IMG/VR virus record: IMGVR_UViG_3300023174_000105
Reading direction: 5' to 3' (one strand)
Source of the DNA: an uncultured virus (IMG/VR IMGVR_UViG_3300023174_000105)
Lineage: Duplodnaviria > Heunggongvirae > Uroviricota > Caudoviricetes
DNA length: 34,052 nucleotides
The position numbers were made by a program, and so were the translations under genes. The notes beneath the pieces were generated by a model. That model did not search any database. It was not told the origin of the DNA and saw nothing but the letters and a program-made list of their open reading frames with translations. Shown piece after piece: positions 733-34,052 of the stretch (positions within the stretch are counted from its first letter, which is position 1; each line of letters begins with the position of its first letter).

Positions 733-1368
733 TTAACCTAGCTCTTTTACAGCTTCTTGATCGTTTTGAGACTGCTCTTCTTCTACGCCAGCTTGTAGTT
801 TTTCAAGTAGTGCTTTAATTTCATCAGGATTTGCACGAGGATATTTTTCGTCAATAGGCAGTGCTTTTTCTGCTAGTTCAAGTTCTTGAGCATTAAGAGC
901 ACGCTGTTTGCAACGTAGTACTTGTAGTGTGTATTCTACGTTATATGCTAGTGGACCAGTTTTTACTCTGCGAAATACTACGTCCCAACCAGTTTCTGGA
1001 TCAGTAGGATCACCCAAGTCTTCTGCTGCTGTAAGAATCTGTTCAAATAGTTTCTTTTTAAGATTAAGTACCTTTACTTTACCTTCTTTAGGGTCAATGC
1101 AGTTAACTGCATAACTCCAGCTGCAACGAAGATCTTGATGAAATTCAGGAACCCAATCTTTTTCTAGATTGTCAAATTTCTCTTTGTCACGACTAAAAGC
1201 AAGACACTCAATAGGAATGTCCTTATTATTAGTACCTTTGACCCAGTAGACATAGCGTGGTAATACCCCGCCAATTAAGCGAACAGTATTTTCACCGTCT
1301 TTGTACTCGTAGCTTTCAACTGAGCTTTTTTGTGCGCGACCTTTGGTTTGCTTAAAGGTTAGTGCCAT
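733..1368 (-). CDS. D11: Single-stranded DNA-binding protein (T5 D11-like)
   Basis: YKDGENTVRLIGGVLPRYVYW, DLGDPTDPETGWD motifs; acidic tail; position between D10 and D12. Confidence 0.8.
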   Translation of the reverse strand: MALTFKQTKGRAQKSSVESYEYKDGENTVRLIGGVLPRYVYWVKGTNNKDIPIECLAFSRDKEKFDNLEKDWVPEFHQDLRCSWSYAVNCIDPKEGKVKVLNLKKKLFEQILTAAEDLGDPTDPETGWDVVFRRVKTGPLAYNVEYTLQVLRCKQRALNAQELELAEKALPIDEKYPRANPDEIKALLEKLQAGVEEEQSQNDQEAVKELG

Positions 1369-15532: not shown

Positions 15533-16105
15533 CTATGGATTAGCTAGGAAAAATGCAAAAGCAAATCCCAGCGGTGTCATTGATCGTAATTCTTTAGTCC
15601 GTTCCGATTTACCGCCCAGTTTCATTATCCACGAATTAGGGTCAGGCTCAACCGGAGTTTTAGGCAAGTCACGGTTAAACTTGCCCCATAATCCAGTTTT
15701 CTTAGTATACGGATCGCCAAACCAGTGTGGCTGAAAATACCAAGGATCGCCTAATTCAGGACGCAGTTTTTGCAGTCTGCCAACTGGATTTTCTAATGCC
15801 CAAAATTCTGGATTGTAGTAGTCTACCATTCGCAAAACTTTGTCTACTAGCTTTAGGCTTTGATCAGTTCTGCCGTCTTGATCTTTTTGTTTCCAGTATT
15901 GTGCGCCACTACCAGCAAAGTCTGTACAAGGCGGAGCAGCTAAAATACCATGTATTTCTTTAGGCAAATCTTTAGGTTGTAGTGTTAATATGTCAATATC
16001 ATGTTTAATATCTACTTGCAATACATTATAACCTGATTCACGATAATATTTAGGCCAATTACCGCTATAATCAAACAATGATAGTATCGTCTTCTTTGTT
16101 GACAC
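15533..16105 (-). CDS. Short phage-type DNA cytosine-C5 methyltransferase
   Basis: LAAPPCTDF (catalytic PC), ENP motif VI, variant motif I LSLFDYSG; GTG start at 16105 with AAGGAAG SD. Confidence 0.8.
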   Translation of the reverse strand: MSTKKTILSLFDYSGNWPKYYRESGYNVLQVDIKHDIDILTLQPKDLPKEIHGILAAPPCTDFAGSGAQYWKQKDQDGRTDQSLKLVDKVLRMVDYYNPEFWALENPVGRLQKLRPELGDPWYFQPHWFGDPYTKKTGLWGKFNRDLPKTPVEPDPNSWIMKLGGKSERTKELRSMTPLGFAFAFFLANP

Positions 16106-16682
16106 TTTTTGCTTCCTTAGCTTTAGCTTCACAAAGTGCTTCTACACGATTACTAACTTCTTCACTATGTAGCCACAAATCTTTGTTTTCCAGCAAACTA
16201 TCAATCTCCTTACTAGTAAGAAAATCTTTGTATATATACTGTAAAAATTGTTTAGACCATTCACGCTCAAACACAGCTTGGTCGTAAATTTCTCCGCCTT
16301 TGCCAAAGATTCCACCACTGTAGTTGTGAAACATAAATAAACTATGTGGTGTTACCTCAAATACATCAGCACATAAGAAGATCATAGTAGCCGCACTCAT
16401 GCAACTGCCTTCAACACTACATACAATAGTAGCTGGTGATTCACTTAGCACACGCATAAATTGTAGCGCAGTGTTTAAATCACCGCCACTGCTATTAATG
16501 TAAATTTTTACTACATCTTGATCACTAGCGCTGCGAATAGTATTAAACCATTCAATATAATCTTCAGGTCCAGTAATTAAACCACTTAGGTAAAATTCGT
16601 AAAGTGCACTAGTACATTTACGAAACCCACGACTAATACCTGTGTCGAGGACAAAATCATCATCTGTTGCGTTTTTAGTCAT
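16071..16682 (-). CDS. clpP: ClpP-family serine protease
   Basis: IYINSSGG, SAATMIF (catalytic Ser), FMFH (His), DLWL. Confidence 0.9.
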   Translation of the reverse strand: MTKNATDDDFVLDTGISRGFRKCTSALYEFYLSGLITGPEDYIEWFNTIRSASDQDVVKIYINSSGGDLNTALQFMRVLSESPATIVCSVEGSCMSAATMIFLCADVFEVTPHSLFMFHNYSGGIFGKGGEIYDQAVFEREWSKQFLQYIYKDFLTSKEIDSLLENKDLWLHSEEVSNRVEALCEAKAKEAKSVNKEDDTIIV

Positions 16683-16695
16683 AGGTGTATAATGT

Positions 16696-16994
16696 AAAAA
16701 AGCCCCCCTTGGTTACAAGGCGGGGGCATACCTCGGCACTAGCTTAAGCGGCTAGGGCAAATACCTCATCGTTGGCATTTATATAGTTTGCTTCTTTTGC
16801 GGAGATCGCCTACCGAGTTGTCCACTTACATACTTATCACACTGTCGAAACCATGACTGGCCCATCAAAAGTACACTACACTTACAGAGGTAACGCGTAC
16901 CACGGCTATGCATCGCCTTAGTGTACTTTTGGTGGACCAGGTGGGAGTCGAACCCACGTCCAGCGCGCCTTTCGGCTTGTTTCATACAACCATA
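16696..16994 (-). ncRNA. ssrA: Circularly permuted (two-piece) tmRNA
   Basis: T-arm GTGGGTTCGACTCCCAC and acceptor 3' strand CTGGTCC-ACCA (16957-16930) lie upstream of the 5' strand GGGCCAG (16863-16857); G3-U70 pair; tag ANDEVFALAA* at 16776-16744; terminator hairpin 16727-16696. Confidence 0.92.
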
Positions 16995-17078
16995 TAAAAA
17001 TACTCTAGTTTGGATTCAAACCTTGTCCTAGTATTGTCTACTTGTGTGTCTCACCACACCGACCAGAGTATTTTTATA

Positions 17079-20452: not shown

Positions 20453-20590
20453 TTAACTTTCAATCAAAAAATATTCGTCTTTGTGGCAACCGCACTCAGG
20501 ACACAAGTAGAACTGTGGAAGTTCATCCCACAAACCGTCTACTTCCTCGTCATGCACATTGCCGCAAACTTCGCATTCATATTTATTCAT
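20453..20590 (-). CDS. Rubredoxin (45 aa; not in ORF track)
   Basis: MNKYECEVCGNVHDEEVDGLWDELPQFYLCPECGCHKDEYFLIES: CxxCG...W..LP....CPxCG..K. Confidence 0.88.
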   Translation of the reverse strand: MNKYECEVCGNVHDEEVDGLWDELPQFYLCPECGCHKDEYFLIES

Positions 20591-31826: not shown

Positions 31827-32153
31827 ATGTACTTGAAATATACTAAAGAAATTACTGACCGTTTAGTTGAACAGTACAAAACTGGCCAGAACGTCCAAAA
31901 AATCGCCCAGGAGCTCGAGGTGCCGGAGCGCAGCATTATTGCCAAACTGTCAAGCCTAGGTGTATACCAAAAAAAGCAGTACTTAAACAAACGCGGTGAA
32001 GTGCCTATCAAAAAGTCAGAGCACATAGAAAACATCGCAAAATTGCTAAAAATGGACCCGGAATTATTGGAAAGTCTAGAAAAAGTCAATAAAGGCATCT
32101 TACAGGTCCTAGAAACCCGATTAAGTGAAAATAACTGCCAAAATCCCGCATAA
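31827..32153 (+). CDS. A2/D3-like HTH DNA-binding protein
   Basis: YT.E....L...Y, IAQELEVPERSIIAKLSSLGVY, ESLEK. Confidence 0.7.
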   Translation: MYLKYTKEITDRLVEQYKTGQNVQKIAQELEVPERSIIAKLSSLGVYQKKQYLNKRGEVPIKKSEHIENIAKLLKMDPELLESLEKVNKGILQVLETRLSENNCQNPA

Positions 32154-32968: not shown

Positions 32969-33280
32969 TCATGCCTCGGCTTTCTGCACCAGGAGTTCCA
33001 GTGCACCCATACCCGCCTTTTCAAGGCTAGCGATTTCGGTAGCGTCAATCGCAAACTTGTTGGCAAGGCGACCGATCAGGTCGGCCTTGGTAACCCGGCC
33101 CTGACCCTTAGCCGCGGTCTTAGGGATGTACACTCCCTCACGGCTGAGTTTTGCCACAATCGACCGTACCGATTTGCCCACTTGCTCGGCAATCATCTCC
33201 ACAGAGTTACCCGTGGTGTACAGACCGATAATGGTAGCAGTCTGCTCGGGGGTGTAGTTTACAGTTTTGTCAGTCATCAT
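32969..33280 (-). CDS. T5 A2-like DNA-binding protein
   Basis: YT.EQT......Y, IAEQVGKSVRSIVAKLSREGVY, RVTKADL, ASLEKA; AAGGA SD. Confidence 0.72.
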   Translation of the reverse strand: MMTDKTVNYTPEQTATIIGLYTTGNSVEMIAEQVGKSVRSIVAKLSREGVYIPKTAAKGQGRVTKADLIGRLANKFAIDATEIASLEKAGMGALELLVQKAEA

Positions 33281-33320
33281 ATGTCCTTTGTGTTTCGGTT
33301 TCTGCGCTGTTGAAGATTCT

Positions 33321-33349
33321 ATTATACGCTATTCAGAACGGGATATCAA
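33321..33349 (-). promoter_or_regulatory. Promoter for A2-like gene
   Basis: TTGATA-N17-TATAAT-AGAATCTT. Confidence 0.8.
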
Positions 33350-33458
33350 GATCAAAATTACTGGGGTCTACGGGGTAATCTGGATAATAGGGATAATCGT
33401 ATTCCTCGTCTTTCCAATCCTGCCACCACTCCTGCTGATCATCTCTGAAGTCTTTCAT
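33333..33458 (-). CDS. 41-aa acidic/aromatic peptide ending FDLDIPF (not in ORF track)
   Basis: ATG 33458 with GAGGA SD and own promoter; MKDFRDDQQEWWQDWKDEEYDYPYYPDYPVDPSNFDLDIPF. Confidence 0.75.
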   Translation of the reverse strand: MKDFRDDQQEWWQDWKDEEYDYPYYPDYPVDPSNFDLDIPF

Positions 33459-33482
33459 CGGTTCCTCACTGTCTAAGATTCT

Positions 33483-33511
33483 ATTATACAGACATTGACC
33501 AGGCACTGCAA
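33483..33511 (-). promoter_or_regulatory. Promoter for the 41-aa peptide gene
   Basis: TTGCAG-N17-TATAAT-AGAATCTT, same leader as the 33321 promoter. Confidence 0.75.
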
Positions 33512-33512
33512 A

Positions 33513-33975
33513 TGCAAATTTTTAGACGCGGCACTTACAAGAATTTGCACTTGATTTCGCACTGGCGCAGGGGGTACCTACCCCCTTGCTGCGGTGCAAC
33601 ATCGTGCCAGAATTTATAAGGAAAATTTTGCCTGTGGTGAAAAAACAACGGCAAAAAGTGCAGTGTGGTGAAAAAACAACGGCAAATTTTGCCCTACGGG
33701 TTTACCCTATTAGGGTTTGTCCCTATGTTGTATTTTTGCACCAGGCTTGACACGCTCCGCAAAATTATGGTATAATTTTGGCGCCATATGGTTCCAGAAT
33801 TTATAACGAATTTTTTGACCAGACCCTAGGGTTTCCCCTAGTGTTGTATTTTTGCACAACCCCTTGACACGTTCCCCATTATACTAGTATAATGGGCGCC
33901 GTTTTAAAAAATATAATGATTATATTTTTTAAAACGATTTACATAAAATAAAACCGGCAATTGCCGGTTTTATTA
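33513..33975. repeat. Non-coding block of direct repeats, palindromes and two promoters
   Basis: 23-bp direct repeat at 33633 and 33664; TGTTGTATTTTTGCAC at 33726 and 33842; CCCTA/TAGGG palindromes; long palindromes at about 33900-33937 and 33947-33974. Confidence 0.85.
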
Positions 33976-34052
33976 AACGCCCAATTAAATGGGTTTTGAA
34001 TTAGCCAATGCGTCGAAAATTGCTTTCAATGCCGATTTATTGGCTTTGGTCA

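Follow-up and report, generated by a model that had tools for sequence, protein, structure and literature searches.

The C-terminal tip of the bacterial single-strand-binding protein SSB docks more than 12 replication, repair and restart enzymes and is a drug target, and it is the last two residues that matter most for docking of this type. The tail of the T7 protein gp4 also has a role in docking, and T7 gp5.9 and Ocr are said to be small acidic phage proteins that are made early and inhibit by mimicking nucleic acid. For the E. coli SSB octapeptide DFDDDIPF, passages of one study state that the DFDD and the DIPF halves both contribute to binding (PMC10143822). DDDIPF tails on mobile-element analogues of SSB are already in print: excerpts of another article describe prophage DUF669 single-strand-binding proteins that carry this ending, and its authors suggest contacts with host proteins (PMC13687109). 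A full-text literature search found no paper describing a free-standing SSB-tip peptide. The original prediction for the locus studied here, made from the letters of an uncultured virus DNA (IMG/VR record IMGVR_UViG_3300023174_000105), was that an unannotated early peptide ends in a mimic of the SSB tail and could act as a decoy. We followed up this prediction in the window, by which we mean the whole stretch of 34,052 nucleotides that was analysed.

The peptide gene, its phage and its relatives

By its sequence, the source of the window is a distant T5-like freshwater phage and not T5 itself. The polymerase is 49% identical to those of Vibrio T5-like phages, and the window holds a T5-type replication module composed of a split NAD ligase, a D5-like regulator, a DnaB-like helicase, a primase, the polymerase, a D10-like helicase and a gp32-like SSB; the DNA of the window had no match in the phage collection. 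The gp32-like SSB (733..1368, minus strand; phrog_1607) ends in QEAVKELG and carries no IPF, in agreement with the earlier claim that the phage's own SSB lacks such a tail, and no ORF with an SSB-tip-like tail was found in the first 72 kb of T5. A permuted tmRNA of betaproteobacterial type lies on the minus strand at 16695-17032 (RF01850, 135 bits, E 2e-41; also RF04321), and its type gives a hint to the host group. ARAGORN reads the tag of this tmRNA as ANDEVFALAA, and an ORF for a ClpP-like protease (16071..16682) adjoins it.

The peptide gene is a 41-codon ORF on the minus strand that runs from an ATG at 33458-33456 to a TGA at 33335-33333 (Table 1), and its product contains 13 D/E, 3 K/R, 11 F/W/Y and 5 P residues. 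The ORF, a promoter of its own, the GAGGA Shine-Dalgarno (SD) sequence and the NFDLDIPF-stop ending are all present as originally described. In all 14 aligned loci a purine-rich SD-like stretch and a start codon (13 ATG, 1 GTG) occupy corresponding positions, and CTGTATAAT in the promoter-like site of the gene is free of variation. AGAATCTT directly follows the -10 box both here and in the promoter-like site of the next gene, and it is similar to TATAATAGATTCAT of the T5 promoter P-N25, as taken from the T5 record. Near-consensus hexamers and the succession of TATAAT and AGA(A/T)TC as in P-N25 mark early T5-type promoters for host sigma-70, and to judge by these signals the peptide gene is equipped for early-type expression. 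Contigs from RNA libraries offer a weak hint of transcription, as they cover the locus in part and may stem from DNA carry-over: a single contig of a PN-type relative takes in the 5' end of the HTH gene and the promoter and reaches part of the way into the peptide ORF, and its loose end reads EYPHYPDSTP once reverse-complemented. Two other reading frames were rejected, namely a 57-aa extension from a GTG at 33506, given that relatives have in-frame stops or unrelated sequence 5' of the ATG, and an antisense 69-aa ORF (33267..33476, plus strand), whose frame holds a stop in 5 of 14 relatives.

Table 1. Positions in the window of the peptide gene, its predicted parts and the adjoining signals and gene
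Feature	Position	Strand	Observation
Acidic, aromatic-rich early peptide ORF	33333..33458	-	41 codons, end ...DPSNFDLDIPF
Shine-Dalgarno GAGGA	33463..33467	-	4 nt 5' of ATG
Promoter-like site of the peptide gene, TTTGCA-18-TATAAT, TGTATAAT extended -10	33483..33512	-	10/12 matches
Predicted amphipathic acidic/Trp helix, residues 4-19	33402..33449	-	AlphaFold2, pLDDT ~76
Pro/Tyr-rich linker, residues 20-32, predicted disordered	33363..33401	-	pLDDT 56-63, no secondary structure
SSB-tip-like ending NFDLDIPF, residues 34-41	33336..33359	-	likeness to SSB tails
20-nt block AGTAATTTTGATCTTGATAT, upstream element and -35	33343..33362	-	identical at DNA level in 14/14 distinct loci
Promoter-like site of the next gene, TTGATA-17-TATAAT	33321..33349	-	11/12 matches
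103-aa HTH DNA-binding protein, next gene downstream	32969..33280	-	phrog_1725 at E 2e-7; D5-like phrog_323

The HTH gene adjoins the peptide gene in every locus long enough to show it, and also in a distant lineage. Its product is one of three paralogous small HTH proteins, the others being encoded at 31827-32153 (plus strand) and 33985-34050 (minus strand, cut by the window end); the three share GKSVRSIVAKLSREGVY-like cores (phrog_1725, D5-like phrog_323), and each has its own strong promoter. The intergenic region 5' of the peptide gene (33500-33975) contains two tandem units of ~117 nt, each made up of a hairpin and a perfect 12/12 sigma-70 promoter on the plus strand. The same region has an exact 23-nt direct repeat at 33633 and 33664, a bidirectional terminator at 33947-33974 and, at 33900-33936, a perfect palindrome of 18 nt. 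From the second of the two promoters an RNA of ~75 nt with two hairpins would be expected (-31.4 kcal/mol, z -8.4), and a comparison of this intergenic region with Rfam returned no family at threshold. Elsewhere in the window, a 45-aa acidic ORF at 20453-20590 (minus strand) bears two CxxC pairs (CEVCG ... CPECG) and looks rubredoxin-like by eye only.

Word and profile searches along with contig scans yielded 26 distinct homologous peptides, all of them from uncultured relatives. The peptide had no match in Pfam, PHROGs, PADLOC, PDB sequences or the ESM Atlas, and tblastn against 50,697 phage records gave nothing even at E 10, a search in which the low-complexity filter may hide matches. A profile search of 1.84 billion representatives found the peptide family itself and one further protein (P0012), which is a repetitive coiled-coil protein of 1454 aa and was judged spurious. 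Two apparent peptide-HTH fusions (P0010 and P0011) were also discarded, as they are artefacts of the genetic code chosen by the gene caller, in which two TGA stops are read as Trp; the same peptides were called alone at 45 aa.

AlphaFold2, run on an 11-row alignment, predicts a layout of helix, disordered Pro/Tyr linker and acidic tip. Five residues that are invariant in this alignment (F4, D7, W11, D14 and E18) all fall within the helix, and their 3-4-3-4 spacing would place them on one face of it. Variation in the alignment is highest in the linker. An OB-fold ssDNA-binding domain is absent from the peptide, which has 41 residues, no match to PF00436 or any other Pfam family and a single-helix model. 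Across codons 2-30, pS is 0.67, pN 0.25 and dN/dS 0.18, with synonymous sites near saturation, and the homologues show conservative exchanges of D with E and among F, W and Y. The low dN/dS, the conservative exchanges and the invariant helix residues argue for selection on the amino-acid sequence, and we conclude from these comparisons that the peptide gene is real, conserved, under purifying selection and representative of a previously unannotated family. The same three observations contradict a further idea, that of a leader or upstream ORF with a functionless product, whose translation would do no more than tune the expression of the HTH gene. The end of the ORF does overlap the HTH promoter, and the RNA-library contig that spans both would be compatible with a read-through transcript into the HTH gene, but the HTH gene has a promoter and an SD of its own, and we consider this idea highly improbable.

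Likeness of the tip to SSB tails

Of the 8 positions of the tip NFDLDIPF, 6 are identical to DFDDDIPF of E. coli SSB, a match that covers both binding segments (FD.. and DIPF), and 7 to the natural SSB tail NFDDDIPF (L052). A stop directly follows Phe-41 and leaves the C terminus free, and the copy in the window has the [IVL]PF type of ending in the form IPF. Compared with the xFDDD pattern, the tip reads N-F-D-L-D, with Leu for one Asp; FDLD, and with it F-35, D-36 and D-38, is invariant in 26 of 26 peptides. As a reference for natural SSB endings, 81 genomes were sampled from the class to which Paraburkholderia belongs; of the 31 loci fetched, 30 had a readable SSB ORF. These ORFs end in IPF (26), VPF (3) or VGF (1), with a terminal Phe in every case, and variation between I and V before PF is common to the peptide family and the natural SSB tails.

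Endings of this type are rare by chance at the scale of the window: [DE]x[DE][ILVM]PF closes 1 of 514 stop-to-stop frames of at least 30 aa, namely this peptide, and in 200 mononucleotide shuffles of the window the mean count was 0.0 for this pattern and 0.06 for [DE][ILVM]P[FYW]. Across 185,579 species genomes, FD[LF]DIPF followed by a stop occurs at 22 places, as compared with ~13 expected by our own arithmetic; 20 of these are short frames of at most 84 aa, none is an SSB, and no SSB in the genomes of this species collection ends exactly in FDLDIPF. In two Pseudomonas species (L033 and L039), FDLDIPF ends a non-SSB protein of at least 211 aa, behind divergent Pro/Ser linkers. The ORF end in these two loci lies at locus position 701-724, the L039 protein has a weak match to Mrr_cat (E 0.009, below the cut-off), and the likeness of this ending to the SSB tip is our own comparison.

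The last six residues also resemble a motif for binding the beta sliding clamp, with which the peptide could block the clamp of the host. The clamp-binding consensus is QLxLxL or QL[SD]LF, and the motif of Hda has Pro at position 5; DLDIPF has L at position 2, I at position 4 and F at position 6 of this hexapeptide and lies at the C terminus, as would fit. Against this stand the Asp found in 26 of 26 peptides in place of the defining Gln at position 1, and the endings in Asn, which break the pattern, so that a clamp-binding role seems very unlikely.

Variation of the ending and the overlapping promoter

Conservation of the terminal IPF, on which the original prediction had turned, fails across the family. 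The 26 peptides end in PF (12), PY (4), PW (3), PN (2) or DN (5); 7 thus end in Asn and another 7 in Tyr or Trp, as against the terminal Phe of all 30 sampled SSBs. No codons of the gene vary more than the last two (pN 0.45), and a 14-tip tree built on the N-terminal codons requires at least six changes of state in the ending and at least two between aromatic and Asn; the trees were built from 90 and 420 columns and are weakly supported. Near-identical peptides can have different endings (for example L003 and L007). In five full-length Asn-ending copies dN/dS is 0.26 for the N-terminal part, and this purifying selection indicates that the core function of the family does without an aromatic end or a terminal Phe.

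Tolerance of F, Y and W would fit aromatic stacking better than a tight Phe pocket, and it raises the possibility that the peptide binds replication proteins of the phage itself (the polymerase or the gp32-like SSB) or, as an ssDNA mimic, an SSB OB fold. Precedents exist in the passages of two studies on which we draw: the C-peptide of E. coli SSB binds the ssDNA groove of its own OB domain (PMC3936761), and the acidic tail of gp2.5, with its essential C-terminal Phe, sits on a basic patch of the T7 polymerase (PMC12339929). The 11 aromatic and 13 acidic residues among 41 likewise resemble a pattern of bases and phosphates. This T7-like arrangement nevertheless appears unlikely, for nothing ties the peptide to the replication module, which is 24-33 kb away in the window, the phage SSB has an acidic tail of its own, and the Asn endings are a misfit.

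The caveat attached to the original prediction, that the last codons lie on the promoter of the next gene, was borne out and proved to have consequences for the tip. The block AGTAATTTTGATCTTGATAT occurs once in the window and consists of the -35 hexamer and the 13 bases 5' of it. Within it, synonymous change was seen in 0 of the 6 codons for S-N-F-D-L-D (codons 33-38), where all six wobble sites are invariant, whereas 7 of 8 invariant-residue codons outside the block do vary synonymously (Fisher p 0.005; 13 of 14 loci, L004 being left out for a deletion). Because the DNA of these codons is constrained by the promoter, the conservation of SNFDLD is no evidence for a peptide motif, and the overlapping promoter would explain the frozen residues at least as well. 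The spacer of the same promoter contains the last two codons and the stop; its sequence is variable, yet all 14 loci agree in its length and in the position of the stop. Further downstream, the -10 box, the entire 5' UTR and the first ~10 HTH codons (about 33240-33326, minus strand) are identical in 14 loci. The genes flanking this invariant stretch differ by 20-30%, and the trees of the two flanks disagree; this pattern points to either a regulatory element or a recombination junction.

The overlap makes room for a reading in which the tail is a by-product. Only the acidic/Trp helix would then work, as a small acidic inhibitor or nucleic-acid mimic directed at a DNA- or RNA-binding protein, FDLDI would be the in-frame reading of TTTGATCTTGATAT in the promoter, and the last two residues would drift. 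We regard this as nearly as likely as a tip that plugs SSB-tip pockets. It accounts for wobble sites that are frozen throughout SNFDLD when synonymous sites elsewhere approach saturation, for the high variability and repeated state changes of the last two codons, for the purifying selection that persists in Asn-ending copies, and for the location of all five invariant residues in the helix. It has more difficulty with the stop, which in all 26 peptides comes exactly two residues behind DLD[IV] even though the next in-frame stop in the window is 20 codons further on, and with the final residue, which is only ever F, Y, W or N. The codon for Pro-40 may be CCC, CCG or CCT, three synonyms that preserve the residue, and a distant lineage (~49% identical, 45 aa) retains [ED]FDLD[IV]PF-stop; both are unexpected of a drifting tail, and the 7/8 match to real SSB tails would have to be a large coincidence. 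The four residues before the ending are different in this distant lineage, and so is the read-through of the 5' UTR. At one locus TGG-TAA replaces the TAC-TGA of others, three changes that leave the peptide with an aromatic end and retain the stop. Since 13 of 14 loci agree in the third base of the last codon and in the TGA, the stop may be held in part by the DNA. The fixed stop, the synonymous Pro codons and the [IV]PF of the distant lineage favour a functional tip, and the frozen codons 33-38 speak for constraint on the DNA. The locus is a clear case of one stretch of DNA that serves as protein motif and as promoter, and it shows that perfect conservation of a motif alone cannot be read as selection on the protein.

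Proposed role and comparison with known systems

Our leading reading, to which we assign a probability of about 0.4, is that of a two-part peptide whose IPF and VPF alleles plug SSB-tip pockets, as a decoy or as an adaptor, while the helix sits on a second partner; that the peptide binds at all, and what either partner is, we infer. An early gene of a T5-like phage would give rise to a strongly acidic peptide of 41 residues. Its first part, the conserved amphipathic helix of residues 4-19, would hold a partner, and its second part, past the disordered Pro/Tyr linker, would present a free C-terminal tip of the form FDLD[IV]P-aromatic, of the SSB docking type. In copies that end in IPF or VPF, including that of the window, the tip would most likely occupy SSB-tip pockets. 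As a decoy it would compete with host SSB, and as an adaptor it would bring an SSB-tip-binding enzyme to the partner of the helix. The DNA of the tip doubles as the upstream and -35 part of the next gene's promoter. The decoy put forward in the original prediction thus stands in part: the gene is real and conserved, it has early-type signals, and the tip matches SSB tails at 6/8 and 7/8 positions, but the terminal IPF varies and the invariance of SNFDLD fits the promoter.

A bolder version of this reading, which we offer as rather doubtful, is that of an SSB tip on a short stalk without the SSB. In this micro-protein the helix would sit on one partner and FDLDIPF in the SSB hub of the host, so as either to block the hub or to lend a host-type tail in trans, for example to the tail-less gp32-like SSB; the same 20 bases would serve as motif and promoter, and the ending would switch among F, Y, W and N as if hosts or defences pushed back. 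If true, a natural free-standing SSB tip made early by a phage would represent a new viral way to rewire or disable the SSB hub, and it would supply a ready-made scaffold for peptide inhibitors.

Like the small acidic early proteins gp5.9 and Ocr of T7, the proposed peptide is tiny, very acidic and early, and those proteins occupy a DNA-binding site on a host protein; they are folded dimers that mimic duplex DNA, whereas the prediction for the peptide is one helix in an otherwise largely disordered chain, and no sequence similarity to gp5.9 or Ocr was found. The gp2.5 and gp4 tails of T7 resemble it as phage-encoded acidic tails with an essential C-terminal aromatic residue that dock on basic patches and compete with ssDNA for an OB fold, but they belong to large replication proteins, have the polymerase of the phage itself as their target and lack IPF. 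The prophage DUF669 proteins offer a parallel in that a protein of a mobile element, and not the host SSB, carries the host SSB docking motif; they are full ssDNA-binding proteins, whereas the peptide here has no DNA-binding domain (PMC13687109). Synthetic mimetics of the SSB C terminus are, in the passages describing them, free DIPF-ending peptides that compete for the ExoI and RecO pockets, and they differ in being man-made octapeptides with neither a natural gene nor a second binding module (PMC10143822). The bacterial SSB C terminus itself differs from the peptide in its setting, as the peptide has no OB fold or tetramer, measures 41 residues with an unrelated helix, has Leu for the central Asp and has relatives that end in Y, W or N, as none of the 30 sampled SSBs do. 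What the two have in common is an acidic end with Phe at -7, Asp at -6 and -4, I-P-F and a free carboxylate, preceded by a disordered Pro-rich linker.
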